Shown here: positions 4,665 to 47,306 of the stretch, piece by piece
Layout of the letters: the number at the start of each line of letters is the position of its first letter
How positions within the stretch are numbered: position 1 is the first letter of the stretch
NCBI GenBank assembly: GCA_010093995.1
Contig: ML992509.1
Span: forward strand, 542,178-606,177
DNA length: 64,000 nucleotides
Origin: Elsinoe ampelina
Taxonomy: Eukaryota
Reading direction: 5' to 3'
Translations under genes and position numbers: made by a program
Notes under the pieces: model-generated
Told to the model about the DNA's origin: nothing
Database searches by the model: none
The model's input: the letters and a program-made list of their open reading frames with translations, nothing else

Positions 4665-6415
4665 TTTGATGTGTGAAGAGTGGGTTTGATTAAGGTTGTG
4701 TGAAGAAGTGGGTTGTGATTAAGAGTAGTAGAAGAGTGTAGTGTTGTAGCGAATGTATTAGGTAGCACCTGGCTGAATGGATGTTTTGTGTGTGGGAGAA
4801 GATGGAAGAGATGCGATGGGATGGAGAAGATGGAAGGGAAGCAGGGAGAGGTTACTTATATCGTCGTTTGAGAGGTGGACTTGCCTTGTGCATTCGACGG
4901 GAGAATAGGTTTGTTGTGGAAGGTCGTGCGCAAAAGGGTCTGACAATAATCGATGCGAGAGATGGCGCTACGCTATGGTGATACGGGGGGATTTGTGATG
5001 TGGCGCGCTCATGGACCAGAAGGTAGAGGACGGTACGCTGTGGTGATGGTCGAGATGTGGTCGATGCGGCCTCAGGAAAGGCCATTGTGGGAGGTGGTAG
5101 AGGGAGCACTGATGGCGGAAAGAGTGTATGAGAATGATGGTGAGACAGTTACCAGTGATGGAAAGAATACGAGGTTGTTTGTGATGTCGATGCGTGGTAG
5201 TCTAAGCTCCGGGATCGACAGGCACTGGGCCGGATGCCGGCAGGTAGAGATGCGGTGGGCCCTCGGCTTGTCTTGGTTTGAGGGCAGCACGAGTTTCGAA
5301 GCTCATGACTATCGTTTCATTGGTGTTGTAAGGTTTGAATGCGGGATCTGGTTGAAAGTGTGGCTCAGGGGTTGCTCGACGCACGGTGCGATCTCCAGAC
5401 CGCACGGGCCAAGCTCAAAATGCACAGACCATGTTCAGAACAACCCATCGTGTGCAGTAGTACTTGGACCGCAATCACTTAGAAGGCCTGCATTATCTGC
5501 TGAAAAATGATCAGATCAGATCAGCTATGACTGAGTGTAAAGTTGATGTACGGGACAAGGTATGGTACCGGACTCACTCACCTCCGACACACCAGGCCTG
5601 GGAGCTGCAGCATTGCCGGCTCTTTTAGGCGAGAGCATAGTCCATGCGCCGCGAGACCCAGACCTCATCTTGCCGGAGAGACGACGATCATGGCTTGATG
5701 TTAGACTCCGTGGGGCTTCACGGATGTGCCTGGTCGCATCCATGGTTGGTGGCGAAGGAGTCGGCAAAGGGCTCCCTCTGTTGACCTCCCAACAAGGACG
5801 GATATCTGCTGTTAGAGGTTTCGCCCTGGACATACTTGACCAATACCGGATAAGAACATGGTCAGACATGCATGGAAGGATGCACCTTAGCAAGATATTG
5901 TAGAAGAACAAGGTACAGTCTTGACGAGGAAAGTGCAGCCATTGCTGTTTCTCCGCATAGCGATGCATCTCCAAACACGTAGGGCTTGCATGAAGAGCAC
6001 CTTCACACGACAGGAGTGATGCAGGAGACTGTGCAGATCTTGACCATTCAAGCTTTGCTCCAGATTCTGGTAAAGAAACAAAAGTAAGCCACGTCGTGCA
6101 CCAATACAGTGAGAAGCAAAGCGAAAGACTGGCTTCAACCAGGTGCCTTCCAAACAAGCCGCTCCGAGGTCTCCCAATGCATTCTCCAAATGCAGCCCTG
6201 AAGCAGTACCTGTTCCGAATCGGTCATTCTTTCATCCTTGTATTTTCTGTACCGTCATCATAGTCTTCTCGGCCATGCCTGTTCGTCTCTGTGTTCCATG
6301 TACAGAGCAATGGCCGATTAGCTTAGGGTATCTCTTGTCATTCTGTAATCGTAATCATCGTATGTCTTGGTGATGCCGTGGTGACCTCTTTCGGATGAAC
6401 GCTGTGTGTCCAAGG

Positions 6416-31141: not shown

Positions 31142-31374
31142 GGTGGGTGGGTACTGCTGGTAGTTGCACTGTGAGGATGTTGGTGTGGCGTGTTATATAT
31201 CGTTCATTCTGACGAGTCCTCGCATCAATGCTTGGACCAACACGTGAAAAAATAAGTGGAAAATATTGATTGATGTTTTGCCAAAGAACGCCTTCAATGA
31301 TGTTGTGTTGTGGCAGGTTGGTTAAAACATGGTGAGCGAAGTTCTACTCAATCCCGTCTGTCTGGACCGTAGTA

Positions 31375-31413
31375 TTCTCTGTTGCAAAAGGGCTGGGATT
31401 TTCTTGGCAAAAT
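31375..31413 (+). repeat. Left terminal inverted repeat (39 bp)
   Basis: TTCTCTGTTGCAAAAGGGCTGGGATTTTCTTGGCAAAAT. Confidence 0.9.
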
Positions 31414-31952
31414 GAAGCGTGAACTTCTTAATAACAAAACATACTATAACCCGCTATATCTTAAATAACTAAAGATCTAGACTAGCTATAGATATAGGCT
31501 AACCTAATATAGATAGAGCTAAAGCTATACTATGAAAGGAGATTAGATATATATATCTAAAGCTTTAAATTAGTCTAATATATAAGAATTATTAAATAAA
31601 AATAAAGTATCTAATTCTACTTAATAGCCTTCTAAGTAGAGCTTTAATTAGTAAGATAAAGCTTAGAATATATTAATATAGTGTAGTATTACTTATTTAT
31701 TACGAATTTATAGCTTAATAACTTATATATAGCTAGATATAAAGTAAATAGTTTTAAGAATTTCTAGAAAATTCTAATTAAGATATTAAGCTAATTAGAC
31801 TAGATAGAAACTTATACTAAGCTATATTAGATATAGTTACTAGTAAAATATCTAAATATATAGTTTATATTTATATATATCTTCTTATAAACTAATTAGA
31901 GCTGTTTTAATAAGTATTATTTTAAAATTTAGTTTTTTATATTTTATATACT

Positions 31953-32415
31953 TGTTACGAACTAGTAGGACAGCTAGAGCGTAGGGACATTAGGACTAAT
32001 TAAACTGCTAAGGTTATTACGTAACCTGGCCCGACGTTTACTTAGTTCTCTATCTTCTCTAGTAGCTCTACTCTAGAGACTATAGAGCATATAGGTTACT
32101 AGTAGATATGTACTCTATACTACTCCTAGCTTTCGCTACGGAGTATATAGAGTATATAGAGTACATAATAGAGAATACATGTATATAGGAATAGTCCTTA
32201 CCTTATATAAGTACTATAGTTAACCTTGTCTAGATAGTAAACACTAGTATTACTAAGGCTAGCCTTTATAATACTATCTAATTGTACTTTATTATCTATA
32301 AGACATACCTTCTCTAACTCTTACCTTAGTACTATACTACTATAGAAGTAGAACTACCTTGTTCTTAGCTTAGCTTAGACTACTAGCATAGGCTATATTT
32401 AGACAGTTTATAACA
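31953..32415 (+). repeat. 5' LTR of copy 1 (463 bp)
   Basis: TGTTACGAACTAG...GTTTATAACA; direct repeat of 38517-38979. Confidence 0.95.
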
Positions 32416-32531
32416 TTTTAACTACCCTTACTATAGTATAGCACGCTATAAGGTTAATAAGTAACTCTTGCTCTAAGTTACTATTAATATCTTTAATCGC
32501 TAGTAAGCTAGGAAGACTTACTATTAACGAC

Positions 32532-34526
32532 ATGTCTACTACTAGTTTAACCTCGAGCGAATATAGAAGGTCTCTTAGTATAGGGAAAGAACGGAGTAGG
32601 CCTAAGCTAGAGGTAGAACCCTTCTATAGAGACTACGCTTACTTAAGGCACTTCCTTGTCTAACTTAAAGCCTTCTTTGCTCTAGAGAGAGATAAATATG
32701 CTAATAATGTAGCAAAGGTTCTCTACGCTAGAATATACCTTAAAGGCGCTACCTTTAGGTAATTTAAGCCTTATATAAGTAGCTACCTAGATAGATAACT
32801 AAGCCTAGATACAAAGGCTATCTTTAAGAGCTTTAGTATCTTCTAGGCAAAGATTAAGCAAGTCTTTAACATATCTAATAAGAAGTATATTACTACAATA
32901 AAGATCTAATAACTACGACAATATAGGTCTATAGCCTAGTACTATTCCTAGTTCTAATAACTCGTAATACACCTAGACTAGGATAATAGTGCTAAATATT
33001 TAGTATTCTACTAAGGACTAAGCGACTTAGTCAAAGATTAAATAATACCTAAGCTGCCTAATAGCCTTTAGGAACTAGTAGAGACTATAATTACTATTAA
33101 TAACTAACTTTACAAACGACATATAGAACATTATAGAGAATATAAGGTAAATACTAGATATATATATTTCTCCTAAAACTATAGAGACTCTATAGAACTT
33201 AATACTATATATAAAGGCTGCCTCTTATAGGTATAAGGCTATAGCTATAGAGGAAAGTTCCTTAGTAGAAAAGAGAGAGAGAAGTATAGATAAGACAATT
33301 TATATTTTAAGTGTAAAAGACTTAGGTATCGGGCTAGGGACTACTAACAAGAAGCGCTAGCTAATAGATTATATATAATAGTTGCTAGGCTAGTAGAAAA
33401 AAAGGCCGACACTACTATAGAAGACCTAACGACCTTTAGTATAGGTAAGGAAATATAGAAGGAGTCTATAACGACTTAAGAGATAAAGGAATCCTCTCTA
33501 GATATTATACTTAATATCTCTACGACTAATAGTAAACAATAAAGCTAACACGCAACGCTATTATAGATAGTATATTATAATAACTCTTATTATATTTACT
33601 TATTAGACAAGTAGGGATCTAGTTAGTTTCTATATAAGCTATCTAAGCGTAGGTAACTAACGAAATAGCTAGACTAGGAGCTTAACCTAGAAAGGCTCTC
33701 TATAATTAGTAGTAATATTAACTAACCTTAGAAGGTAGTTAGCGACAATTACTAATATACAATTATCGAGATAAAGTATTAGGACGTAAGTACTATATAA
33801 CAATATAGTAGTCTTACCTTTAGCTCTTATAGTAAACTACAAGGAAAGGTGTATTATATGTCGCTCTAGAAATATATAAATCTAGATTATAAATAGTACT
33901 ACTCTATCTACTTACACGATGTACTTAGAGAAGACACTATTAGTCTTAAATATACTATAGACTTCTCGGTAATTAAGATAGATAGTACTATTCCCTATAG
34001 CTAAGTAAGAGAATATACTTAGTATAGCCTTACTAACTATAACTATACTAGAGGTAGTAGCGACAAGGAGAAATATAACAAAGAATATACTAAATAACTA
34101 TACTATAACAACATAGATAAAGACCTATTTAATAACAACAACAACAATAATAACGTACTACTACTAGGCGGACAACTTAAGGCATATCTTATAGAGATAT
34201 AGAGAAATTATATAATAATATATACCTACTACTAGAATAGGACATAATAAGACAAATCTATATAACTTACTTTTGTCTTTAATACTAATACCTAGCTATA
34301 CCTAGAAGGAATAGTTATACTAATATAGGTATATAACACTACTTAGTATAACTAGTAGAGGATTATTAGACTTTATAGTTACTAAGGGACTTAGGCGCTA
34401 GAAGTTTACCTTACTATATTAAACAATAATAAAACATAACTTGCTTAGTAGATATAGTACTAATAGTAGATATGTATAGGAAGGGATTAGCTACTTATCT
34501 AAGGAGCTATAATAACAAAAAACTAG
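32532..34526 (+). pseudogene. gag of copy 1 (RIP-disrupted, ~664 codons)
   Basis: ATG 32532; de-RIPed PFxGD..L..FL.QL capsid start; CCHC knuckle C-F-K-C-x-R-x-G-H-R-A-R-D-C at 33303-33344; ends ACA AAA AAC TAG. Confidence 0.8.
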
Positions 34527-37500
34527 CTAGTTATTACTTAATAAGGCAAGATAATAACACTAGCTAAAGCCTTAATATAATAAAGATCTATATGTTAAAT
34601 TACTTTATACTAGAAGTCTAGATATAAGGAAATAAGGTAAAAGCAATAATAGATTTAGGAGCTAACTATAGCTACGTCTCTATAACAATTGCTAATTAGC
34701 TTAAACCTTATTAATATTAGAAGGAGTTACCTTACTTACTTACTATAGCAAATAGAACCTCTATAGAGAAGAACGAGAAAGTTACTTAGAAACTATAAAA
34801 TATTATAATCTAAATCGAAACATATACGGAAAAATAATTAATTAATATAGTTAATATATAGTATAATATAGTACTTAGCATAGACTAGCTTTAATAATAT
34901 AATCTAGACGTAGACTAGATTAAAGAAACACTTAAATTCCCTAGGTGTAATTATAGAATGTAAGGAGTATAATTAGCTCTATAGATACTAACTATAAGAA
35001 TAGTATAGGTACGACTAATAGTTAGAGCTATTACTAGCGTAAGTAATTAAGTACTTCTACTAGAATATAAAGACTTTAAGAACTTATTTAAAGAAAGAAA
35101 AGGTATTATAGCCTTACTCTAATATAAACTATAGAATTACAAAATACCTTTTAAAGAGGGTAAATCCCTAATATACTATTAAGGTCTTATACTACTATTA
35201 AAATAAGAGAAGAATGTCCTTAAGAACTATATCGATAAGTACTTACTTAAAGAATTTATATAACTATTAAAATTACCTATTATATATAGAGTACTTTTTA
35301 CACTAAAAAAGGATAGAACATTATAAATATATATTAATTATTAGAAACTTAATACACTTACTAGGAAGAATTGCTATCCCCTACTAAGGATTAATAAACT
35401 TTAAGACTAACTACTTAGAGCTAAATAGTTTACTATAATTAATATTAGAGATGCTTATTATTAAGTATAAATAAAGGAGAGTAAGGAGTAAAAAACGGCT
35501 TTTAGGACATAATAGAGTCTATATAAGTATCTTATTATACTCTTTAGGTTAACTAATACTCCTATAACCTTCTAAGAGTTAATTAATAACACTTTATAAG
35601 AATACCTTAATAACTTTATCTTAGTATATTTAGATAATATTATTATTTTCTTAAAGATATATAATAAACATATAGGATATATTTATAAAGTGCTATAAAA
35701 ACTAAAAGAGAAAGACCTACTAGTAAAACTCTCTAAGTATAAGTTCTATAAGTATAAGATATAATTTCTAGGCTATGTTATATCTACTAATAGTATTAGA
35801 CCTAATCCGAAGAAGATTAAATTAGTAAATAACTAGCCGGAACCTATAATAGTTAAGGAGGTTTAAGCGCTACTAGAGTTCTTTAACTACTACTATAAGT
35901 TTATTAAAGGATTCTCTAAGGTAGCTATACTAATATCTAATCTTACGAAAAAGGAAACTAGCTTTATCTTTAACAAAAAATGTAAGTAGGCCTTTAAGGA
36001 GCTAAAGCTTAGACTTATAATAGTACTTATCCTAGCACTCTTTAACTTAGACCGATAAGTACTACTAGAAATAGATGTCTTAGACTTTATAATAGAAGTA
36101 TATCTAGTATAGAAGGACGTAGAAGAATAACGCTACTTAATTATATACTACTTACGAAAAATGACTAGATCTAAACTTAACTATAATATATATAATAAGG
36201 AATTACTTATAATTATAAAAGCATTCCGTAAGTAAAGAGTATACCTAGAAGGAATAACCTTACCTATATAAGTCTATACTAACTATAAGAACCTTCTATA
36301 TTAGACAATAACTAAGGTTCTTAATAGATAATAGGTCTAATAGTTAGAAACACTTATAAGCTATAACTTCTAGATCTACTACGTTAAAGAATTAGAGAAT
36401 AGCGGAGTAGACGCTCTTAGCTAACAACTAGACTACTTAAAGAATATAATAATAATAGAGGCCTCTATACTAAAGTAGCAAGATAGCGCTTTAGTCTATA
36501 AGTACCTAAAGGTAGAGTAGTTATATAGCCTTACCTAGGAGCTTATATAAGAATAGAAACAAGAAGTTATTTAAATATACTATAATAACCTAATAGTAGG
36601 ATATAGTAGGATTAATAAGACTATTAAGCTTATTATATAAAACTACCTATAGAAAGGACTCTAAAATAATATTAAGACATATATTGCTACATGTAATACC
36701 TATTATAAGTCTAAGCACTTCTAACATAAACTATATAGCCTACTATAACTCTTACTACTACTAGATAAACTATAGTAATTAGTTATAATAGACTTTATAG
36801 GACCTCTACTACTATCGGAAGAACCTCTTATAGGTGTAAAGTATAATAGTATTCTAGTTCTAGTAGATAGGTTTATAAAGTATTACTACTTTATACTATA
36901 TAAGATAATAGTAACTACTAAGGATATAGCCTTTACCTTCCTCTAGATAATTATTTTATAATATAGAGTACTATAAGACCTAATAACTAATAGAGATAAG
37001 TTATTTATATTATAATTCTAGTAATTATTTATAGACCTACTAGGAATTAAATATAAGCTATTAACCTTCTTTTATCTATAAACGGATAGATAAACTAAAT
37101 AGGCAAATTAAGTACTAGAGTAGTACTTATAATACTACCTAAACTATAAGTAAGACTTATAAGTAATACTATTACTACTTACGGAGCTTACTATTAATAA
37201 TAGAAAGTCAGTAAATAGAATTTTACTATTCTATATAAACTATAGAATATACCTAGATCTATACTATAACACACTTAGAATTAAGCTAATATCTAAGGAC
37301 GCTAATATACTAGTAGCTAACATTAAGAAACTATATAACTAGCTATACTACGATATATTATTTATATTATAGAGAATAGTAGAGTTTACTAACTAGAAGA
37401 GAATTACGGGACTAATTCTATAGAAGAGAGAGAAAGTTTACCTCCTTAGTAAAAACATTAAAACGAAATAACTAAGTAAGAAACTTAACTATACTAAACT

Positions 37501-37900
37501 AAGACTCTTTAAGATCCTAGAAAAGAAAAATAAGAACATATATAAACTAGAACTACTAAGACATATAAGGATCTATCTAGTCTTTTATATATTACTACTA
37601 GAGAAAGCACTATAGAATACTATACCTAGACCTATTAAACTTAATAAAGAAACATAAGAGCTATAGTATAAGATCGAAAAGGTTTTATATTATAAACTTA
37701 TTAAAGGAAAACGTTACTATCTTATTTACTAGAAGGGACATTAGTATAGTAAAGTAATATAGGAACTAGAGAAGCACCTTACCTCGTAAGTAATCCTAGA
37801 TTACTAGATCGAGAACCTATTCTAAGTAAACTAACTAGATAGATCTAGTACCCCTAATACTAAACAAAAACGAGAATACCTAAGGAAGATTACTTAAGTA
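34517..37900 (+). pseudogene. pol of copy 1 (protease, RT, RNase H, integrase, chromodomain; -1 frame relative to gag; 3' end approximate)
   Basis: All in one frame after undoing C>T/G>A: AMIDSGA 34643, YLDD 35627, ETDASD ~36068, MDFVGPLP ~36787, GPFKI ~37502, HPVFHVSLL ~37574, chromodomain YEIEKV..YLIHWKG..TWEPEKHL 37667-37780. Confidence 0.88.
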
Positions 37901-38442
37901 ATAGAAGCACCTTAATTACTACTAAATAAAGAACCCTAGTTAGAGTTAGGTATAAATAATTACTAGTCCTATAGTAGGATAGGATCTACTAACGATAGTA
38001 TTTCCTCCTACTCTAGGACTTAAATATAAGTCTCCTCTAGAGAGATTACTTCCTCTACCTTGTCCTTTAACTTTTATATCTCTTTACATAGGTAAAGCTT
38101 ATTACCTATAGCTCTTTAATAAGCCTCTTTTACCTTTTTATAAGCTTCTTTAGCTTTCTTTCTAGTAGCCTTAGCTATAACTAATTCCTTTCGTAAACGA
38201 ATATACTTAAACTAGAGATGCTACTATTTTAATTTTATTACTTAAATATTATAACTTAAGTAGTTACTTATAATATACTAGCTATAGATACCCGACCGAA
38301 TATAGACTTTATAATCTAGCCTCTTTAATTTGTAACAAGAATAAGCCTATAGCATATTAGTTCTAAATAGTTTAATAAACTCTAAGAGATTCTTTCGTGT
38401 AGATATACTAGATTTACTATACCTTTAATAACTAGGAGACAT
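37894..38442 (-). pseudogene. Antisense extra ORF in copy 1 (Zn2Cys6-spaced cluster + coiled coil; RIP-disrupted; stop uncertain)
   Basis: ATG at 38442; six TAT/TAC codons spaced x2-x6-x8-x2-x7 (expected RIP products of TGT/TGC), followed by a K/E/A-rich helical stretch. Confidence 0.65.
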
Positions 38443-38516
38443 GTTTAGTATATAGCATATAAAGACAAGGAAAAATACTTACTTGTTAGGACAACTCGAT
38501 TAAAGGAGGAGAGTAA

Positions 38517-38979
38517 TATTATAAACTAGTAGGATAGCTAGAGCGTAGAGACATTAGGACTAATTAAACTACTAAGGTTATTACGTGACCTAGTCTAACA
38601 TTTACCTAGTTCTCTATCTTCTCTAGTAGCTCTACTCTAGAGACTATAGAGCGTATAGGTTACTAGTAGATATATACTCTATACTACCTCTAGCTTTTGC
38701 TACGAAGCACATAGAGCATATAGAGTACGTAATAGAGAATATATATATATAGGAACAGTCCTTACCTTATATAAGTACTATAGTTAACCTTGTCTAGATA
38801 GCAAACACTAGTATTACTAAGGCTAGCCTTTATAATACTATCTAATTGTACTTTATTATCTATAAGACATACCTTCTCTAACTCTTACCTTAGTACTATA
38901 CTACTATAGAAGTAGAACTACCTTATTCTTAGCTTAGCTTAGACTACTAGCGTAGGCTATATTTAGACAGTTCGTAACA
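38517..38979 (+). repeat. 3' LTR of copy 1 (463 bp)
   Basis: TATTATAAACTAG (RIPed TGTTACGAACTAG)...GTTCGTAACA. Confidence 0.95.
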
Positions 38980-39446
38980 ATACTAATCTAGTAATACTAA
39001 ACTATATAAACTATATATAATTTAGGTTTCTAGAGTATAGAAAGCTTTATTATAAAAACTTAGACTTTATAAATCTTATATAGCTTATATTAGTCTAAAA
39101 GAGATAAGTAGATTTTATTACTATTTAACTACTTGTAATAATCTAAGTAGACTAGATATAAAGCTAAGATTTATTTACTAGTAAGTCTATATAATAAATA
39201 TTAAATCTCTTAAATAGAATTCTAATAGTAATTAAACTTAAAAAGTTATTAAGAGTTTAAAAAGCTAAAGTTCTTAAAATTCCTTACTTTCTTAACTTTA
39301 TATCTCTAGAAGTATATAAGTATAACTAAATTTCTATAGCTTATATTAAATTTTATATAATAGACTTATTATAATATAGTTCTTAGCTTTATATTTAGTT
39401 TACTTAGTTTATTATAAGTAGTAAAATAGTAATAAAATCTACTTAT

Positions 39447-39909
39447 TATTACAAACTGTCTAAACATAGCCTACGCTAGTAGTCTAAGCTAAGCTAGGAA
39501 CGAGGTAGTTTTACTTCTATAGTAGTATAGCACTAAGGTAAGAGTCGGAGAAGGTATATCTTATAGATAATAAAGTACAATTAGATAGTATTACAAAGGC
39601 TAGCCTTAGCAATACTAGTGTTCGCTATCTAGACAAGGTTAACTATAGTACTTATATAAGGTAAGGACTATTTCTATATATATATATTCTCTATTACGTT
39701 CTCTATATGCTTTATATACTCTATAGCGAGAGTTAGAGGCAATATAAAGTACACATCTACTAGTAACCTACGTGCTCTATAGTTTTAGAGGTAGAGCTAC
39801 TAGAGAAGATAGAGAACTAGGTAAATGTCAGGCTAGGTTACGTAATAATCTTAGTAGCTTAATTAGTCCTAACGTCTCTATATTCTAGCTGTCCTACTAG
39901 TTTATAATA
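39447..39909 (-). repeat. 3' LTR of copy 2
   Basis: Reverse complement of the copy-1 LTR; adjacent to the PPT. Confidence 0.95.
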
Positions 39910-39983
39910 TTACTCTTCTCCTTTAATCGAGTTATCCTAATAAGTAAGTATCCTTCCTTGTCCTTATACGCTATATACTAAAT

Positions 39984-40532
39984 ATGCCTCCTAGTTGTCA
40001 AAAGTATAGCAAATCTAGTATATCTACACGAAAGAATCTCTTAGAGTTTATTAAACTATTTAGAACTAACATGCTATAGGCTTATTCTTGTTATAAATTA
40101 AAGGGGCTAGACTATAAGGTCTATATTCGGTCGGGTATCTATAGCTAGTATATCGTAAGTAACTACTTAGGTTATAATATTTAAGTAATAAAATTAGAAT
40201 AGTAGCGTCTTTAGTCTAAGCACATTTATTTACGAAAGGAATTAGTTATAGCTAAGGCTACTAGAAGGGAAGCTAAAGAAGCTTATAAAAAGGTAAAAGA
40301 GGCTTATTAAAGAGCTATAGGTAATAAGCTTTACCTATACGAAAAGATATAAAAGTTAAAGAATAAAGCGGAGAAAGTAATCTCTCTAGAAGAGACTTGT
40401 ATTTAAGTCTTAGAGTAGAAGGAAATACTATTGTTAGTAGATCCTGTTCTACTATAGGACTAGTAGTTATTTATGCCTAACTCTAATTAGAGTTCCTTAC
40501 TTAGTAACAATTAAGGTACTTCTATTAGTTAA
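39984..40532 (+). pseudogene. Antisense extra ORF in copy 2 (Zn2Cys6-spaced cluster + coiled coil; RIP-disrupted; stop uncertain)
   Basis: ATG CCT CCT AGT at 39984; same frame, length and Cys-derived codon spacing as in copy 1. Confidence 0.65.
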
Positions 40533-43500
40533 GCAATCTTCCTTAGGCATTTTCGTTTTTATTTAGTATTTAGAGTACTAGGTCTGTCTAGTTAGTTTAC
40601 TTAGGATAGGTTCTCGATCTAGTAATCTAGAATTACTTATAAGGTAAGGTACTCCTCTAGTTCCTATATTACTTTACTATACTAATGTCCCTTCTAGTAA
40701 ATAAGATAGTAGCGTTTTCCTTTTATAAGTTTATAATATAAACCCCTTTCTATCTTATACTATAGCTCCTATGTTTCTTCCTCTAGTTTAATAGGTCTAG
40801 GTATAGTATTCTATAGTGCTTTCTCTAGTAGTAATATATAAAAGACTAGATAAATCCTTATATGTCTTAGTAGTTCTAGTTTATATATGTTCTTATTTTT
40901 CTTTTCTAGGATCTTAAAGAGTTCTAGTTTAGTATAGTTAAGTTTCTTACTCGGTTGTTTCGTTTTAATATTTTTACTAAGGAGGTAAACTTTCTCCTCC
41001 TCCTATAGAATTAGTCCTATAATTCTCTTCCGGTTAGTAAACTCTACTATTCTTTGTAATATAAATACTATATTATAGTATAGCTAGTCGTGTAGTTTCT
41101 TAATATTAGCTACTAGTATGTTAGTATCCTTAGATACTAGCTTAATTCTAAGTATGTTATAGTATAGATCTAGATATATTCTATAGTTTACATAGAATAG
41201 TAAAATTCTATTTGCTAACTTTCTATTGTTAATAGTAAGCTCTACAAGTAGTAATAGTATTACCTATAAGTCTTACTTATAGTTTAGGTAGCATTATAGG
41301 TACTACTCTAGTACTTAATTTACCTGTTTAGTTTGTCTATCCGTTTATAAGTAAAAGAAGATTAATAGCTTATATTTAACTCCTAGTAGGTCTATAAATA
41401 ATTACTAGAATTATAATATAAATAGCTTATCCCTATTAGTTATTAGGTCTCGTAGTACTCTATGTTATAAAATAATTATTTAGAGGAAGGTAAAGGCTAT
41501 ATCCTCGGTAGTTACTATTATCTTATATAGGACAAAGTAGTAATACTTTATAAACCTATCTACTAGGACTAGAATACTATTATACTTTACACCTATAAGA
41601 AGTTCTTCTAATAGTAGTAGAGGTCCTATAAAGTCTATTATAACTAATTGCCATAGTTTGTCTAGTGGTAGTAAGAGTTATAGTAGGCTATATAGTCTAT
41701 ATCGAGAGTGCTTAGACTTGTAGTATATATCGTAGGTAGCAATATATGTCTTAACATCGTTTCGGAGTCCTTTCTAGAGGTAGTTTTATATAATAAGTTC
41801 GATAGTCTTGTTAATTCTACTATGTCCTGCCGTTAGGTTATTATAGTATATTTAAATAACTTCTTTCTTTCGTTCTTACGTAAGCTTCTAGGTAAGGCTA
41901 TATAACTACTCTACCTTCGGGTGCTTATAGACTAGAGTGCTGTCCTACTACTTTAGTATAGAGGCCTTTATTATTGTTATATTTTTTAAGTAATCTAGCT
42001 AGCGGCTAAGAGCATCTACTTTGCTGTTCTCTAATTCCTTAACATAGTAGATCTAGAAGTTATAGCTTATAAGTATTTCTAACTATCGAACCTGTTATCT
42101 ATTAAGAACCTTAGTTATTGTTTAATATAGAAGGTTCTTATAGTTAGTATAGACTTATATAAGTAAGGTTATCCCTTCTAGGTATACTCTCTATTTATAG
42201 AACGCTTTTATAATTATAAGTAATTCCTTGTCGTATATATCGTAGTTAAGTTTAGGTCTAGTCATTTTTCGTAAGTAGTATATAATTAGGTAGCGTTATC
42301 CTTCTACACTCTTCTACGCTAGATACGCTTCTATTACAAAGTCTAAGACATTTATTTCTAGTAGTGCTTATCGGTCTAGGTCGAAGAGTGCTAGGACAGG
42401 TGCTATTATAAGCCTAAGCTTTAGCTCCTTAAAGGCCTACCTATACCTCTTATTAAAGATAAAGCTAGTTTCCTTTTTCGTAAGGTTAGATATTAGCGTA
42501 GCTACCTTAGAGAATCCTTTAACAAACTTATAGTAGTAGTTAAAGAACTCTAGTAGCGCTTAAACCTCCTTAACTATTATAGGTTCTAGCTAGTTATTTA
42601 CTAACTTGATCTTCTTCGGATTAGGTCTAATACTATTAGTAGATATAATATAGTCTAGAAATTGTATCTTGTGTTTATAGAACTTATACTTAGAGAGTTT
42701 TACTAGTAGGTCTTTTTCTTTTAGTTTCTATAGCACTTTATAAATATATCTTATATATTTATTATACGTCTTTAAGAAGATAATAATATTATCTAAATAT
42801 ACTAAGATAAAATTATTAAGGTATTTTTATAGAGTGTTATTAATTAACTCTTAGAAGGTTATAGAAGTATTAGTTAACCTAAAGGGCATAACGAGGTACT
42901 TATATAAACTCTATTACGTCCTAAAAGCTGTCTTCTACTCCTTGCCCTCCTTTATTTATACTTAATAATAGGCGTCCCTAATATTAATTATAGTAAACTA
43001 TTTAGCTCTAAGTAGTTAGTCTTAAAGTTTATTAATCCTTAGTAGGGGATAGCAATTCTTCCTAGTAAGTATATTAAGTTTCTAGTAATTAATATATATT
43101 TATAACATTCTATCCTTTTTTAGTGTAAAAAGCACTCCGTACGTAATAGGTAATTTTAATAGTTATATAAATCCTTTAAGTAAGTACTTATCGATGTAGT
43201 TCTTAAGGACATTCTTCTCTTATTTTAATAGTAGTATAAGACCTTAATAGTGTATTAGGGATTTACCTTCTTCGAAAGGTATTTTATAATTCTATAGTTT
43301 ATATTAAAGTAAGGCTATAATACCTTCTCTTTCTTTAAATAAGTCCTCAAAGTCTTTATATTTCGGTAGAAGTACTTAATTACTTACGCTAGCGATAGCT
43401 CTAACTATTAGTCGTACCTATACTATCCTTATAGTTAGTATCTATAGAGCTAATTATGCTCTCTATGTTTTATAATTATACTTAGGAAATTCGAGTGTTT

Positions 43501-46004
43501 CTTTAATCTAGTCTACGTCTAGATTGTGTTATTAAAGCTAGTCTATACTAAGTACTATATTGTACTATATGTTAACTATATTAATTAATTATTTTTCTAT
43601 ATATGTTTTAATTTAGATTATAACGTTTCGTAGTTCCTAAGTAACTTTCCTATTCTTCCCTATAGAGGTTCTATCTACTATAGTAAGTAGGTAAGGTAAC
43701 TCCTTCTAGTATTAATAAGGTTTAAGCTAATTAGTAACTATTATAGAGACGTAGCTATAGTTAGCTCCTAAATCTATTATTGCTCTTACCTTACTCCCTT
43801 ATATTTCAACTTCTAGTATAAAGTAGTTTAACGTGTAAATCTTTATTATATTAAGGCTTTAGCTAGTATTATTGTCTTGCCTTATTAGGCAATAACTAGC
43901 TAGTTTTTTGTTATTGTAGCTCCTTAGATAAGTAGCTAATCCCTTTCTATACGTATCTACTATTAGTACTATATCTATTAGACAAGTTATGTTTTATCGC
44001 TATTTAATATAGTAAGGTAAACTTCTAGCGCCTAAGTCCCTTAGTAACTATAAAGTCTAATAATTCTCTACTAGTTGTACTAAGTAGTATTATACACCTA
44101 TATAGGTATAACTATTTCTTCTAGGTATAGCTAGGTATTAGTATTAAAGATAAAAACAAGTTATATAGATTTGTCTTATTACGTCCTATTCTAGTAGTAG
44201 GTATATATTATTATATAATTCCTCTATATCCCTATAAGGTATACTTTAAGTCGTTTGCCTAATAGTAGTACATTGTCGTTGTTGTTATTGTTAGATAAGT
44301 TCTTATCTATATTGTTACATTATAGTTGTTTAGTATATCCTTCGTTATATTCCTCTTTGTCGCTACTGCCCCTAGTATAGTTATAGTTAGTAAGGCTATA
44401 CTAAGTATATTCTTTTACTTAGCTATAGGGAATAGTACTACCTATCTTAATTACTAAGAAGTCTATAGTGTATTTAAGACTAATAGCGTCTTCTCTAAGC
44501 ATATTATATAAGTAGATAGTATAGTACTATTCGTAATCTAGATTTATACATTTCTAGAGCGATATATAATATGCCTTTCCTTATAGTTCGCTATAAGAGC
44601 TAAAGGTAAGGCTACTATATTATTATATAGCACTTGTATCCTAATACTTTATCTTGATAATTATATATTAGTAATTGTCGCTAACTACCTTCTAAGGTTA
44701 GTTAATGTTACTACTAATTATAGAGAGTCTTTCTAGATTAAGCCCCTAGTCTAGCTATTTTATTAGTTGCCTACGCTTAGATAGCTTATATAAGAACTAA
44801 CTAGATCCCTACTTATCTAATAAGTAAATATAATAAGAGTTATTATAATATACTATCTATAATAGCGTTGTATGTTAGCTTTATTATTTACTATTAGTCG
44901 TAGAGATATTAAGTATAATATCTAGAGAGGATTCTATTGCCTCTTAAGTTGTTATAGATCTCTTCTATATTTCCTTACCTACGCTAAAGGTTATTAGGTC
45001 TTCTATAGTAGTATCGGCCTTTTTTTCTACTAGCCTAGTAACTATTATATATAATCTATTAGCTAGCGCCCCTTGTCGGTAGTCCCTAGCCTAATACCTA
45101 GGTCTTTTACACTTAAAACATAGGTTATCTTATCTGTACTTCTCTCTCTCTTTTCTACTAAGGAACTTTCCTTTATAGCTATAGCCTTATACCTATAAGG
45201 GGCAGCCTTCGTATATAGTATTAAGTTCTATAGGGTCTCTATAGTTTCGAGAGGAACATATATATCTAGTGTTTACCTTATATCCCCTATAACATTCTAT
45301 GTATTGTTTATAAAGTCTATTATTAATAGCAATTGTAGTATCTACTAGTTCCTAAAGACTATCGAGCGGCTCGAGTATTATTTAGTCTTTAACTAAGTCG
45401 CTTAGTCCTTAATAGAATACTAAGTGTTTAGTACTATCGTCCTAGTCTAGGTATATTATAAGTTATTAGAACTAGGAATAGTACTAGGCTATAGACCTAC
45501 GTTGTTATAATTGTTAGATCTTTATCGTAGCGACGTGTTCCTTATTAGATATATTAAAGACTTACTTAATCTTTGCCTAGAAAATACTAAAGCTCTTAAA
45601 GATAGCCTTTGTATCTAGGCCTAGTTATCTATCTAGGTAGCTACTTATATAAGGCTTAAACTACCCGAAGGCGGCGCCCTTAATGTGTATTCTAGTATAG
45701 AGGACCTTTGCTACGTCGTTACTATACTTATCTCTCTCTAGAGCGAAGAAGGCTTTAAGTTAAATAAGAAAGTGTCTTAAGTAAGCGTAGTCCCTATAGA
45801 AGAGTTCTACCTCTAACTTAGGCCTACTTCGTCCTTCTATACTAAAAGACCTTCTATGTTTACCCGAGGTTAAACTAGTAGTAGACATATTGTTAATAGT
45901 AAGCTTTTCTAGCTTGCTAGCGATTAAAGATGCTAATAGTAACTTAGAGCGAGAGTTACTTATTAACCTTGTAGCGTGCTATACTATAGTAAGGGTAGTT
46001 AAAA

Positions 46005-46467
46005 TGTTATAAACTGTCTAAACATAGCCTACACTAGTAGTCTAAGCTAAGCTAGGAACGAGGTAGTTCTACTTCTATAGTAGTATAGTACTAAGGTAAG
46101 AGTCAGAGAAGGTATGTCTTATAGATAATAAAGTACAATTAGATAGTATTATAAAGGCTAGCCTTAGTAATACTAGTGTTTGCTATCTAGACAAGGTTAA
46201 CTATAGTACTTATATAAGGTAAGGACTATTCCTATATACATGTGTTCTCTATTGTGTTCTCTATGTGCTCTATATACTCTATAGCAAGAGTTAGAAGTAA
46301 TATAGAGTACACGTCTGCTAGTAACCTGCGTACTCTATAGTTTTAGGGGTAGAGCCGCTAGAGAAGATAGAGAACCGGGTAAACGTCGGGTTAGGTCACG
46401 TAATGATCTCGGTAGCTTAATTGGTCCTAACGTCCCTACATTCTAGCTGTCCTACTAGTTTATAACA
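46005..46467 (-). repeat. 5' LTR of copy 2
   Basis: TGTTATAAACTGTC...AGTTTATAACA; direct repeat of 39447-39909. Confidence 0.95.
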
Positions 46468-47130
46468 CTTATTTCTTTTAGACTAGTATAAGCTATATAT
46501 AATTTATAAGGTCTAGATACTTATTATAAAGCTTTAGGTCTCCTATAAGCTTAAATTATATATAGTTTATATAGTCTAATATAGCTAGTTTAGTATATTA
46601 AATATAAAAAACTAAATTCTAAAATAGTACTTACTAAAAAAGCTCTAATTAGTTTATAAGAAGATATATATAAACATAAACTATATATTTAGATATTTTA
46701 CTAGTAACTACATCTAATATAGCTTAGTATAAGTTTCTATCTAGTCTAATTAGCTTAATATCTTAATTGGAATTTTCTAGAAATTCTTAAAACTGTTTAC
46801 TTTATATCTAGCTATATATAAGTTATTAAGCTATAAATTTTTAACTAATAAGTAATATTACACTGTTTTAGTATAGTCTAAGCTTTTTGTTATTAATTTC
46901 TATATTATTTACTTCATTATATAAGATAATAAAGTTACTAGTTAAAATTTACTATTTCTTATAGAAGAAGCTAATAGCTAGACTTAATTTAAGTATAAAT
47001 AGATTAATCTATAATATATATGCTACTAAACCTAGATTAGGTCAGTATATATAAATAATATGCTTAGCTATTTAGATATCTAGAAAAAGAGCAATTTTGG
47101 TATCTAGTTTTGTTCAGAAATTCAGACTCG

Positions 47131-47169
47131 ATTTTGCCAAGAAAATCCTAACCCTTTTGCAACAGAGAA
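47131..47169 (-). repeat. Right terminal inverted repeat (39 bp)
   Basis: Reverse complement is TTCTCTGTTGCAAAAGGGTTAGGATTTTCTTGGCAAAAT (2 transitions vs the left TIR). Confidence 0.9.
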
Positions 47170-47306
47170 TAACACGAAAGTCAGGATGGGAGGAGAGTGC
47201 GGATGCAGGCAATTCAATACAATCCTAGGCAATGCATATTTTGATCAAGTGGATATATTTGTACAAGTACAGTAGCTTCGTAAGTATTACACATTGACCA
47301 ACACGT

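Follow-up and report, generated by a model that had tools for sequence, protein, structure and literature searches.

LTR retrotransposons are usually modelled as carriers of gag and pol only, and a locus in the genome of the fungus Elsinoe ampelina raises the question of whether some of them carry a further gene on the opposite strand. Two copies of a chromovirus, both heavily altered by RIP, have an ATG-initiated frame of 183 codons antisense to pol, which an earlier note, made from the letters alone, had read as the remains of a gene for a small protein with a Zn(II)2Cys6-like cluster and a coiled coil. We have followed up this reading in the whole stretch of 64,000 nucleotides in which the locus lies (contig ML992509.1, positions 542,178 to 606,177 of the forward strand; hereafter the window, to which all coordinates refer) and in related elements. 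At a probability of roughly 80%, the two frames descend from a genuine accessory gene that RIP has inactivated in both copies, and which a large group of chromoviruses from the Ascomycota carries in antisense, in the interval from pol to the 3′ LTR.

A RIP-mutated island with two chromovirus copies

Between 31.4 and 47.2 kb, the window holds a single inverted duplication, which forms a RIP-mutated island. Arm A (31368..39204, + strand; inverted-repeat pairs I1-I3, I6, I7 and I9) and arm B (39346..47176, - strand; likewise recognised by inverted-repeat pairs) each comprise one copy of the element with its flanks, and they are separated by a spacer of 141 nt (39205-39345). The RIP-mutated arm A has a GC content of 25-32%, against about 54% in the flanks, and dinucleotide ratios of 1.89 for TA/AT and 0.23 for (CA+TG)/(AC+GT). 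Overall the arms are 89.3% identical, with transitions making up 725 of the 826 mismatches, and around the antisense frame they are 95% identical, with no indels across 721 aligned columns.

In each arm lies one Ty3/gypsy chromovirus, bounded by LTRs of 463 bp and a target duplication of 5 bp. Copy 1 is a complete LTR element of 7027 bp (31953..38979, +), its LTR boundaries read from the sequence and supported by direct repeat D2, and ATACT occurs on either side of it (31948-31952 and 38980-38984) as a 5-bp target-site duplication. Its 463-bp 5′ LTR (31953..32415, +) was recognised as a direct repeat, and its 3′ LTR (38517..38979, +) by the direct repeat together with sequence reading. The pol region (35336..37819, +), interrupted by many stops, comprises RT, RNase H, integrase, SH3_Tf2-1 and a chromodomain-like end; with the stops read as X, Pfam recovers RVT_1 (2e-12), RT_RNaseH_2 (1e-15), Integrase_H2C2 and SH3_Tf2-1, and the domains precomputed for related pol proteins include PF00385 (chromo). 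This pol is 57% identical to a polyprotein of Elsinoe fawcettii (P0003), and the likeness to the C-terminus of the latter can be followed by eye to about 37920, which places the end of pol at about 37820-37920. The polypurine tract AAAGGAGGAGAG (38502..38513, +) lies 59 nt past the antisense ATG and 3 nt ahead of the 3′ LTR. In copy 2, the 3′ LTR is at 39449..39907 (-; inverted pair I4) and the 5′ LTR at 46005..46465 (-; direct repeat D1 and inverted pair I5).

The antisense frame of 183 codons was located between pol and the polypurine tract in both copies, at 37894..38442 (-) in copy 1 and at 39984..40532 (+) in copy 2, with 16 and 15 internal stops, respectively. A putative antisense promoter would find room solely in the 3′ LTR, where the earlier note had supposed it, or in the 74 nt between the antisense ATG and the LTR. 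The expected cluster pattern was also found, at 38251..38343 (-) and 40083..40175 (+), where a former Cys6 cluster now reads Y-x2-Y-x6-Y-x8-Y-x2-Y-x7-Y: five or six of the six Cys positions have become Tyr (TAT or TAC) at a spacing of 2-6-8-2-7, so that the Cys6 feature itself is gone from the dead copies. With their in-frame stops and lost Cys codons, both window copies are dead pseudogenes without any function of their own.

Two arguments first advanced for this frame hold as observations and lose their weight as evidence. The frame and its length are indeed the same in both copies, but these are the arms of one inverted duplication and give no independent support. The internal stops are indeed all TAA or TAG, the expected RIP products, but TGA is nearly missing from all frames of the interval, and the absence of TGA therefore does not discriminate. 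Taken alone, the antisense frame is no more open than its neighbours: it has 16-17 stops, the terminal one included, versus 18-24 in the other two frames of this strand, and the island as a whole averages 20.1 +/- 5.7 stops per 183 codons, with 15 or fewer in 23% of its windows. A zinc-cluster expression relaxed to accept Cys or Tyr matches eight places in the island versus about one expected (Markov-2 simulations, maximum 4 in 200), which indicates that unrelated matches exist elsewhere in it. The raw frame gave no match in Pfam, PF00172 included, nor in a word-indexed protein search, as expected from the Cys-to-Tyr changes and the stops. The ordinary stop count, the further pattern matches and the empty searches would all fit a frame that is no gene relic and arose by chance from a RIP-biased composition, in which TAT and stops are common.

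Intact relatives of the antisense frame

What raises the window frame above chance, as judged by sequence comparison, is its homology to intact relatives. One of them is an intact protein of 211 aa from Elsinoe australis (P0400, B9Z65_8923), whose locus tag adjoins that of a pol of the closest family (P0010, B9Z65_8922; for each, the longest contig listed has 6264 nt). BLASTP aligns it with the X-read frames at E values of 2e-15 (copy 1) and 7e-15 (copy 2), over 146-147 collinear residues starting at Met1. When a four-sequence subfamily HMM was run against the chopped six-frame translation of the window, exactly the two relic frames came out on top (4.3e-6 for copy 2, 1.2e-4 for copy 1), the next-best match standing at 7e-3, and tblastn connects the copy 2 relic with a related locus (L028) at an E value of 3e-5. 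A broad 25-sequence family HMM found nothing significant in the whole six-frame translations of the window. A weak family match at 5355-5522 (+; E 0.007-0.1), in a frame that does not have the Cys6 pattern, was set aside as chance.

The natural intact relatives served as the reference in place of a deRIP consensus, for which the window offers only two near-identical arms. Of 94 columns conserved in 14 intact relatives, 30-31 are identical in the window, and a further 26-28 hold codons that can be reached from the consensus residue through C>T or G>A changes alone; codon-shuffled controls gave 5 and 12, and the combined figure of 57-58 out of 94 compares with a maximum of 27 in 200 shuffles. 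Nine of 15 stops are likewise reachable through RIP from the residue seen in their column, among them an invariant Trp at a TAG. All six Tyr/Cys positions of the window align with invariant Cys residues of the relatives, and their codons (TAT, TAC or TGT) can each be derived from Cys codons through G-to-A mutation, while the Tyr of the window motif KVY falls on an invariant His (CAT to TAT). The homology runs collinearly through the cluster and the helix of a family of antisense Cys6 coiled-coil ORFs (alignment A3), where the six positions are Cys in 25 of the 25 aligned ORFs, and the frames of the intact relatives are open. The strand and the position are, moreover, the same as in 30 related loci. 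Unless the alignments are artefactual, we count chance as already refuted by the HMM, BLASTP and column results, and give it next to no credit.

Position, selection and exchange of the accessory gene

The earlier note placed the gene inside the element, between pol and the 3′ LTR, and the relatives agree: across 79 related loci, 44 of the 45 matches to the family HMM lie on the strand opposite to pol, and so do all 26 ORFs of at least 80 aa that satisfy the strict Cys6 expression. The family follows pol directly, in antisense, in 30 of the 41 testable related chromovirus loci, which come from metagenomes and are not independent of each other, since L023/L024, L033/L034 and L017/L022 are pairs of near-duplicates and several of the contigs have sample prefixes in common. 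Ten of the 11 loci that do not have the family fall in one clade of the pol tree, on which two changes are needed, a number as low as that being found in none of 500 shuffles. The accessory gene has thus been inherited along with the element.

These data also bear on the idea that the ORF is a host gene near preferred insertion sites, or a one-off capture, instead of a component of the element. In its favour, UniRef gives P0400 and a second family member (P0375) the ordinary label "Zn(2)-C6 fungal-type domain-containing protein". However, the window gene sits within an LTR pair and its target-site duplication, the gene of L011 lies between two LTR copies, and the presence of the gene tracks the pol tree. 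A search for direct-repeat LTRs in six metagenome loci found none in four of them, which we attribute to the collapse of LTRs in metagenome assemblies, and found terminal wrap-around repeats in L009 and L032, whose contigs wrap around through the gene. A host origin of this kind appears most improbable.

The family is large, with 2032 representatives at 50% identity when matches are taken at E<=1e-3, of which 962 remain at E<=1e-10, and a median length of 189 aa. Its clusters in the ESM Atlas are from Ascomycota and are all labelled "hypothetical protein"; a second query of the same resource added nothing, the structure rows being generic long helices. Elsewhere the public annotation is again "hypothetical", or a mislabelling as galactokinase or AcrA, and the family profile now enables annotators to recognise the cassette.

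The antisense family is under strong purifying selection. The ORFs of one pair of loci (L010/L008) show a dN/dS of 0.046, with 8, 5 and 44 differences at the three codon positions, and a second pair (L002/L039) a dN/dS of 0.095. For the first pair, pN/pS is 0.068 in the coding frame versus 1.7-5.9 in four other frames; the complementary frame, at 0.16, contains stops and has third positions that coincide with those of the coding frame. Selection is therefore both strong (0.05-0.10) and specific to this frame. The outcomes that the earlier note had named as fatal to its own reading were Tyr or His at the six positions of un-RIPed relatives, closed frames in them, and relaxed selection; every one of these points came out in its favour, and its core reading of the frame is supported.

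Could the selected product be mainly an antisense RNA, acting either by transcriptional interference or through dsRNA or siRNA that it forms with the 3′ end of the genomic RNA, with the ORF as a secondary matter? Such a transcript would be able to pair with the sense RNA at its 3′ end, overlapping the tail of pol by 0-134 nt in the relatives, and antisense lncRNAs are reported from fungal transposons (PMC10648671). Nevertheless, the codon periodicity and the low dN/dS are found in this frame only, the six Cys are invariant among ORFs that are about 20% identical, and the AlphaFold model of the protein is confident, none of which would be preserved by a function of the RNA alone. We regard this alternative as quite unlikely.

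A different aspect of the family is its exchange between elements. The loci L010 and L011 have LTR stretches that are 96-98% identical and ORFs that are only 24% identical, and ORF identity is uncorrelated with pol identity over 136 pairs (Spearman 0.10, p 0.25). The cassette between pol and the LTR is exchanged between near-identical elements by recombination. The combination of near-identical LTRs with divergent ORFs also speaks against co-evolution of the protein with sites in the LTR of its own element.

The encoded protein and its counterparts

The product of the intact gene, about 190 aa long, has a basic helix at its N-terminus, then six invariant Cys, a long helix and a tail that is acidic and contains Trp. 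The Cys6 pattern is present in 143 of the 150 best representatives, most often at spacings of 2-6-8-2-6 (77) or 2-6-8-2-7 (35), and in 25 of the 25 ORFs of alignment A3 the spacing falls within C-x2-C-x6-C-x5-12-C-x2-C-x6-8-C. The AlphaFold2 model (mean pLDDT 86.8) has helices at residues 9-23, 32-37, 51-56 and 66-150; net charge passes from +7.9 in the N-terminus plus cluster to -3.6 in the helix and -5.4 in the tail, and 77% of the best representatives have a Trp at least 60 residues downstream of the cluster. Model and composition thus bear out the layout foreseen from the dead copies, in which a zinc-cluster-like knot precedes a long helix and an acidic tail with Trp closes the chain.

Membership of PF00172 is a different matter: the best match, from the ORF of L045, scores 18.2 bits against a gathering cut-off of 21, sub-threshold matches occur in only 5 of 17 ORFs, and none of the 120 homologues among the matches listed has an entry in its precomputed Pfam field. 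"Zn2Cys6-like" is consequently the proper wording. A profile search of PDB sequences gave no significant match (LAC9 0.087, PUT3 0.099, LEU3 0.19, GAL4 0.52). Foldseek returned 22 PDB matches of which 21 are Zn2Cys6 DNA-binding domains, and 33-35 residues of the predicted cluster superpose on LAC9, Leu3 and Pho7 at 1.8-1.9 A. Canonical Gal4-type clusters have a Lys pair after Cys2, which in Gal4 lies in the segment between Cys2 and Cys3 and contacts CGG, and a Pro between Cys3 and Cys4. The family does not conserve the Lys pair, its six-residue Cys2-Cys3 segment averaging only 1.6 Lys/Arg, and the Pro is rare (17/143). Judged from the missing Lys pair, DNA binding of the CGG type is doubtful.

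The long helix is predicted to pair with itself. The self-pairing model scores 0.55 against 0.00 for the best control, a mark reached by 21 of 30 proteins solved as one-chain pairs and by none of 23 solved as single chains, the present model standing outside that calibration because it left the alignment unused and included zinc. At least 95% of the contacts are shared between runs, and the partner pLDDT is at least 72. The predicted dimer is antiparallel along the 85-residue helix, with contacts such as 86-111, 79-114 and 96-96, so that the two clusters would stand far apart, unlike those of Gal4 or Put3.

We tentatively propose, at somewhat less than even odds, that the protein takes up two zinc ions in its cluster, that two chains pair through the long helix, and that the protein enters the nucleus, binds nucleic acid and acts as an element-encoded regulator of transcription, whether in its own element or in host DNA close by. 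Since the gene is antisense, the protein would be made from the integrated DNA copy only, through a promoter of its own and independently of the gag-pol RNA. A competing possibility, to which we attach a lower probability, is that of a real protein that is not a DNA-binding transcription factor, with the Cys6 knot as a structural zinc module and the helix as a protein-protein adaptor. Such an adaptor might tether the integration complex, recruit or block host silencing factors, or interfere with rival elements. The scores below the PF00172 cut-off, the weakly basic Cys2-Cys3 segment and the separation of the clusters by the predicted antiparallel pairing would all suit it, as would the deeply divergent cassettes swapped among near-identical backbones with the same LTR and the uncorrelated ORF and pol identities, a pattern less expected of a housekeeping activator of the LTR than of a module for an arms race or for specificity. 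On the other side stand the net charge of about +8 in the N-terminal third, an acidic and aromatic tail that resembles an activation region, and the fact that the structural neighbours of the knot are all DNA-binding Zn2Cys6 domains.

Beyond the E. ampelina locus, these data describe in a large group of fungal chromoviruses a third gene that is conserved, strongly selected and represented by more than 2000 sequence clusters, and that encodes on the opposite strand an accessory protein whose predicted structure resembles a DNA-binding regulator. They also indicate that RIP-degraded frames become readable by comparison with un-RIPed metagenomic relatives. If the protein does control the transcription of the element or the host, this would change the reading of transposon activity, of RIP and heterochromatin islands, and of transposon-driven regulation in plant-pathogenic fungi.

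Among known proteins, the closest in likeness are the Gal4-type Zn(II)2Cys6 factors (Gal4, Put3, Leu3, Hap1, Ppr1, Lac9, Pho7). The Cys spacing of the family is canonical, and both have two short helices that each begin at a CxxC, a helix after the cluster, an acidic tail and a distribution restricted to fungi; in the structural models, Gal4-type structures are the sole neighbours of the predicted knot. Apart from the subthreshold profile score and the cluster residues already mentioned, the family differs in its 85-residue helix with predicted antiparallel pairing, in having no fungal-specific transcription-factor middle domain, and in the small size of the whole protein (about 190 aa), which is encoded by a transposon.

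In retroviruses, HBZ of HTLV-1 and ASP of HIV-1 are proteins encoded in antisense in the 3′ part of the provirus. HBZ, a bZIP protein, offers an analogy of layout only: a small antisense-encoded protein, like a nuclear factor, with coiled-coil pairing, produced from integrated DNA only and independent of genomic RNA. There is no sequence relation, and no bZIP family appears among the Pfam matches of 17 ORFs at E<=1. By this analogy, one might picture the swappable antisense cassette as a miniature Gal4-like transcription factor with zinc cluster, pairing helix and acidic activation tail that is made by integrated copies only, sets the transcriptional state of the element or of neighbouring host genes as a fungal counterpart of HBZ, and exists in deep allelic types which, exchanged between otherwise 95%-identical elements, would be specificity or immunity modules against rival elements or host silencing. 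We put this forward as a speculative extension that may well prove wrong; if true, it would provide a tractable fungal parallel to the retroviral antisense proteins.

In plants, additional antisense ORFs of Ty3/gypsy elements are described in passages of PMC7264820 for Grande, RIRE2, Retand and PvRetro13. According to these descriptions, on which the comparison rests, they share with the present family the position between pol and the 3′ LTR, the antisense orientation and the conservation within families, and they differ in belonging to non-chromovirus lineages, with no zinc-cluster identity reported in those passages. For fungi, a review entitled "LTR Retrotransposons in Fungi" (PMC3248453) contains no occurrence of "antisense" or "zinc", and in the literature on antisense or additional ORFs of fungal LTR elements, bioRxiv and PDF supplements (such as Figure S1 of PMC8365987, which draws brtn) being outside its scope, no link to a zinc cluster was found.

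The nearest precedent is brtn, the extra antisense gene of Boty-like retrotransposons in Botrytis cinerea and Sclerotinia (Zhao et al. 2011, Virology 417:248, as cited in PMC7264820, PMC8365987 and PMC4227169). The passages of these papers that mention brtn report no zinc cluster, coiled coil, family size, selection or cassette exchange. As described there, it lies between pol and the 3′ LTR of a fungal chromodomain Ty3/gypsy element, antisense to gag-pol, and this is the arrangement found in the window and in its relatives; the hosts differ, being Leotiomycetes for brtn and Dothideomycetes-like for the family of the window. Thus, the claim that the antisense gene stands outside the standard gag-pol model is right in that the accessory gene is real, whereas its layout has, by these accounts, a precedent in the brtn of Boty since 2011. 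Likened by description alone, the window family and BRTN are, as a guess, probably one and the same family.

The RIP-mutated element and its antisense frame

The GC content of the window is about 54% and drops to 25-32% at 31.4-47.2 kb, an island where the RIP indices are extreme (TA/AT of 1.89 vs 0.52 in the flank; (CA+TG)/(AC+GT) of 0.23 vs 1.29). The whole island is made up of an inverted duplication, with arms at 31368-39204 and 39346-47176 (arms A and B) separated by a 141-nt spacer, each of them containing one LTR retrotransposon in tail to tail orientation. This near-perfect palindrome comprises the whole element, ~600 nt of its 5′-side flank and ~225 nt past the 3′ LTR. The arms are 89.3% identical, and the predominance of transitions (725 of 826 mismatches) indicates that RIP went on after the duplication; the C/G state is retained more often in arm B (431 vs 294).

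Copy 1 of the retrotransposon, in arm A, spans 31953-38979 (+ strand), where it is bounded by LTRs of 463 bp each (31953-32415 and 38517-38979) and by a 5-bp target duplication, ATACT; its polypurine tract lies at 38502-38513. With stops read as X, its frame 1 shows the Pfam domains RVT_1, RT_RNaseH_2, Integrase_H2C2 and SH3_Tf2-1, with chromodomain-like text after the last of these. The top protein match of its pol is P0003, an Elsinoe fawcettii ‘Tf2-5 polyprotein-like’ protein with 57% identity despite RIP, and the next are E. australis and metagenome proteins with PF00385. These domains and matches identify the element as a chromovirus, as the earlier note had called it.

An antisense frame of 183 codons starting with ATG lies between pol and the 3′ LTR, at 37894-38442 (- strand) in copy 1 and at 39984-40532 (+ strand) in copy 2, with 16 and 15 internal stops, respectively, all of them TAA or TAG. 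Position, start, length, stop type and the Tyr/Cys pattern are exactly those described in the earlier note. By itself, the frame is weak evidence for a gene: it holds 16-17 stops vs 18-24 in the two shifted same-strand frames (island mean 20 ± 5.7), TGA is nearly missing in every frame of the pol-to-LTR interval, a relaxed [CY] regular expression matches eight times in the island vs ~1 expected, and the two copies are duplicates with zero indels over 721 aligned columns, so that their shared length and frame, real as they are, do not constitute independent evidence. The other relaxed matches in the island, at 34119-34149 (-), 44304 (+), 32081 (+) and 33213 (-), which include a Cys/Tyr-rich stretch antisense to the internal region of the element, are probably compositional. 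The raw frame had no match in Pfam or in a word-indexed protein search.

A profile search retrieved P0400, an intact Elsinoe australis relative of 211 aa (B9Z65_8923; ‘Zn(2)-C6 fungal-type domain-containing protein’ in UniRef), whose locus tag comes right after that of the pol protein P0010 (B9Z65_8922), the longest contig for both being 6264 nt. In BLASTP, P0400 matches the X-read window frames with E values of 7e-15 and 2e-15, collinearly from Met1 over 146-147 residues, and the two frames take the top ranks when the six-frame window is searched with a 4-sequence subfamily HMM. In the window, the six invariant Cys columns read TAT, TAC or TGT; a TAT also stands at the invariant His of ‘CKVH’, and a TAG at the invariant tail Trp. 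Of the 94 conserved columns, 57-58 hold window codons that are identical or RIP-reachable, vs no more than 27 in any of 200 codon shuffles. Homology, Cys columns and reachable codons thus indicate that the earlier reconstruction by hand was essentially right. Of the 15 stops, 9 can be derived through C>T/G>A changes from a residue that occurs in the same column, and one, which faces an invariant Asp, cannot. The window copies are dead pseudogenes with no function. A weak family-HMM/BLAST match in the GC-rich flank (5355-5522, + strand; E 0.007-0.1) was judged to be chance, since its translated frame has no Cys6 pattern.

A selected antisense gene in related chromoviruses

Searching metagenome contigs with the intact Elsinoe pol P0003 yielded 79 related loci. 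A strict Cys6 regular expression gave ~32 matches in all six frames of these loci, each on the strand opposite to pol; ORFs of at least 80 aa bearing the motif were antisense in 26/26 cases, as were 44 of the 45 matches of a family HMM (38 loci). The sole match on the pol strand (L017:15210-15380, +; E 8e-5), ~7.4 kb downstream of pol, may represent another element in inverted orientation or a zinc-cluster gene of the host. Among the 41 testable loci, those that extend through the 3′ end of pol with 600 nt or more beyond it, the family lies directly 3′ of pol in 30, although locus counts are not fully independent, with three near-identical locus pairs and sample prefixes in common. Ten of the 11 loci without the gene fall in one well-supported pol clade, and presence and absence take 2 changes on the pol tree vs a shuffled mean of 9.9 (0/500 shuffles as low). 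This clade (L037, L054, L058, L063, L067, L069, L070, L072, L073 and L075) may reflect loss or primary absence, the tree being unrooted; L021 is without the gene separately.

The gene is an internal component of the element: in the window both the LTRs and the target duplication enclose it, in L011 it is flanked by the two LTR copies, and L009 and L032 are wrap-around contigs that contain it. In four loci, pol and its antisense neighbour converge at their 3′ ends: a 13-nt gap separates them in L028, their stop codons abut in L010, and they overlap by 86 nt in L019 and by 134 nt in L002. Pol-tail similarity in the window seems to reach ~25 nt into the 3′ end of the ORF.

The antisense gene encodes a selected protein. 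With an in-house Nei-Gojobori script, the pair L010/L008 (8/5/44 differences at codon positions 1/2/3) gave a dN/dS of 0.046, and L002/L039 one of 0.095. For the former pair, pN/pS is 0.068 in the gene frame and 1.7-5.9 in four other frames; the complementary frame, with coinciding third positions, shows 0.16 and contains stops. Synonymous sites are saturated in distant pairs (pS 0.7-0.87 vs pN 0.25-0.48). Selection at the codon level makes an RNA-only role of the antisense transcript unlikely. Homology to P0400, the related loci and selection all support reading the window frame as the remnant of an accessory gene, one that is selected, element-borne, antisense and dead in the window, and the first observation, with its frame, coordinates and pattern, is confirmed overall.

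The family amounts to 2032 representatives at 50% identity with E<=1e-3 (962 with E<=1e-10), with a median length of 189 aa; those with a named source belong to Elsinoe, Hortaea and Sporormia, and the Atlas clusters to Ascomycota. The majority bear the label ‘hypothetical’, and the automatic names of some are clearly incorrect. Misleading public names include ‘multidrug efflux pump subunit AcrA’, ‘galactokinase’, ‘transglutaminase-like cysteine proteinase’ and ‘septal ring factor EnvC’, the misannotated proteins being P0273, P0274, P0301, P0366, P0356, P0385 and P0392.

Cassette exchange, protein architecture and possible role

Between the loci L010 and L011, DNA identity is 94.7% from gag-pol to the pol end (5780 nt) and 96-98% in the LTR, whereas their pol-to-LTR intervals of ~870 nt (compared at L010:5700-6652 and L011:11958-12767) are unalignable. 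One breakpoint coincides with the end of pol and the other with the edge of the LTR, as they do in L025 and L026. ORF and pol identities are uncorrelated (Spearman 0.10, p 0.25; 136 pairs, 17 loci), with values of 24% and 96% for L010/L011, and 65% and 55% for L019/L028. The accessory gene therefore acts like a module that recombines and whose types are old and divergent and, since L010 and L011 retain the same LTR stretches, its protein is not obviously co-evolving with LTR sites. The window type, ‘CKVH-RSG-C’, is common to E. australis, L028, L019, L010 and L008; L002, the nearest metagenome locus in pol, has a different one.

An AlphaFold2 model from a 25-sequence alignment (mean pLDDT 86.8) places a predicted helix at the N-terminus (9-23), a short one at each CxxC pair (32-37 and 51-56) and a long one of 85 residues at 66-150. 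Net charge is +7.9 for the N-terminus and cluster, -3.6 for the helix and -5.4 for the tail, and a Trp occurs downstream of the cluster in 77%. The Gal4-type cluster of the earlier claim is favoured by the Cys spacing, which agrees with the canonical Zn2Cys6 pattern, and by a predicted knot that superposes on LAC9, Leu3 and Pho7 (33-35 residues, 1.8-1.9 Å), 21 of 22 Foldseek PDB matches being Zn2Cys6 DNA-binding domains (Pho7, Leu3, Hap1, Gal4, Put3, Ppr1, Lac9). However, the family never reaches the PF00172 cut-off of 21 bits (best 18.2), a PDB sequence profile search gave E values of at least 0.087 for Zn2Cys6 proteins, and the Cys2-Cys3 segment is weakly basic, so we file it as Zn2Cys6-like and not as a PF00172 member.

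The long helix is predicted to pair as an antiparallel coiled coil. A two-copy model, made without an alignment and with zinc included, which is outside the calibration, scored 0.55 vs 0.00 for the best control, a mark reached by 21/30 proteins solved as one-chain pairs and 0/23 single-chain structures. The runs agree in 95% or more of the contacts, partner pLDDT is 72 or higher, and heptad-spaced contacts pair residue i with ~193-i. The coils of Gal4 and Put3 are short and parallel.

Owing to its antisense orientation, the gene cannot be translated from genomic RNA and would need its own promoter on integrated DNA, so the protein would be expressed from the integrated copy. Merely 74 nt separate the window ATG from the LTR (277 cassette-specific nt lie upstream in L010), so any promoter there must be in the LTR, where we would place the putative promoter of the window gene. 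A basic cluster, a pairing helix and an acidic aromatic tail could be the parts of a small dimeric transcription regulator, a reading to which we give a probability of roughly 40-45%. The main rival, a zinc-stabilised coiled-coil adaptor that acts on proteins (in targeting, anti-silencing or inter-element competition), fits the weakly basic segment, the antiparallel pairing and the swapping of cassettes alike, and we regard it as somewhat less likely. The family revealed by the dead window copy merits experimental work.

Relation to known antisense genes

In the literature searched, we found no paper joining a zinc cluster or a coiled coil to such an antisense gene, and antisense genes go unmentioned in a 2011 survey of fungal LTR elements (PMC3248453). 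Domain identity, family size and selection, clade-wise distribution and cassette exchange thus appear to be unpublished within this literature. The antisense accessory gene as a kind is already known: brtn was described in 2011 as an ‘additional antisense gene’ between pol and the 3′ LTR in Boty-like chromoviruses of Botrytis and Sclerotinia and, according to the passages of these sources that deal with it, its function is not known and it is not in the current B05.10 annotation (PMC8365987, PMC7264820, PMC4227169, PMC5987419). The window gene occupies the same antisense place, a likeness drawn from the published description and not from sequence, and its copy here is a new, dead member of this kind from another fungal class.
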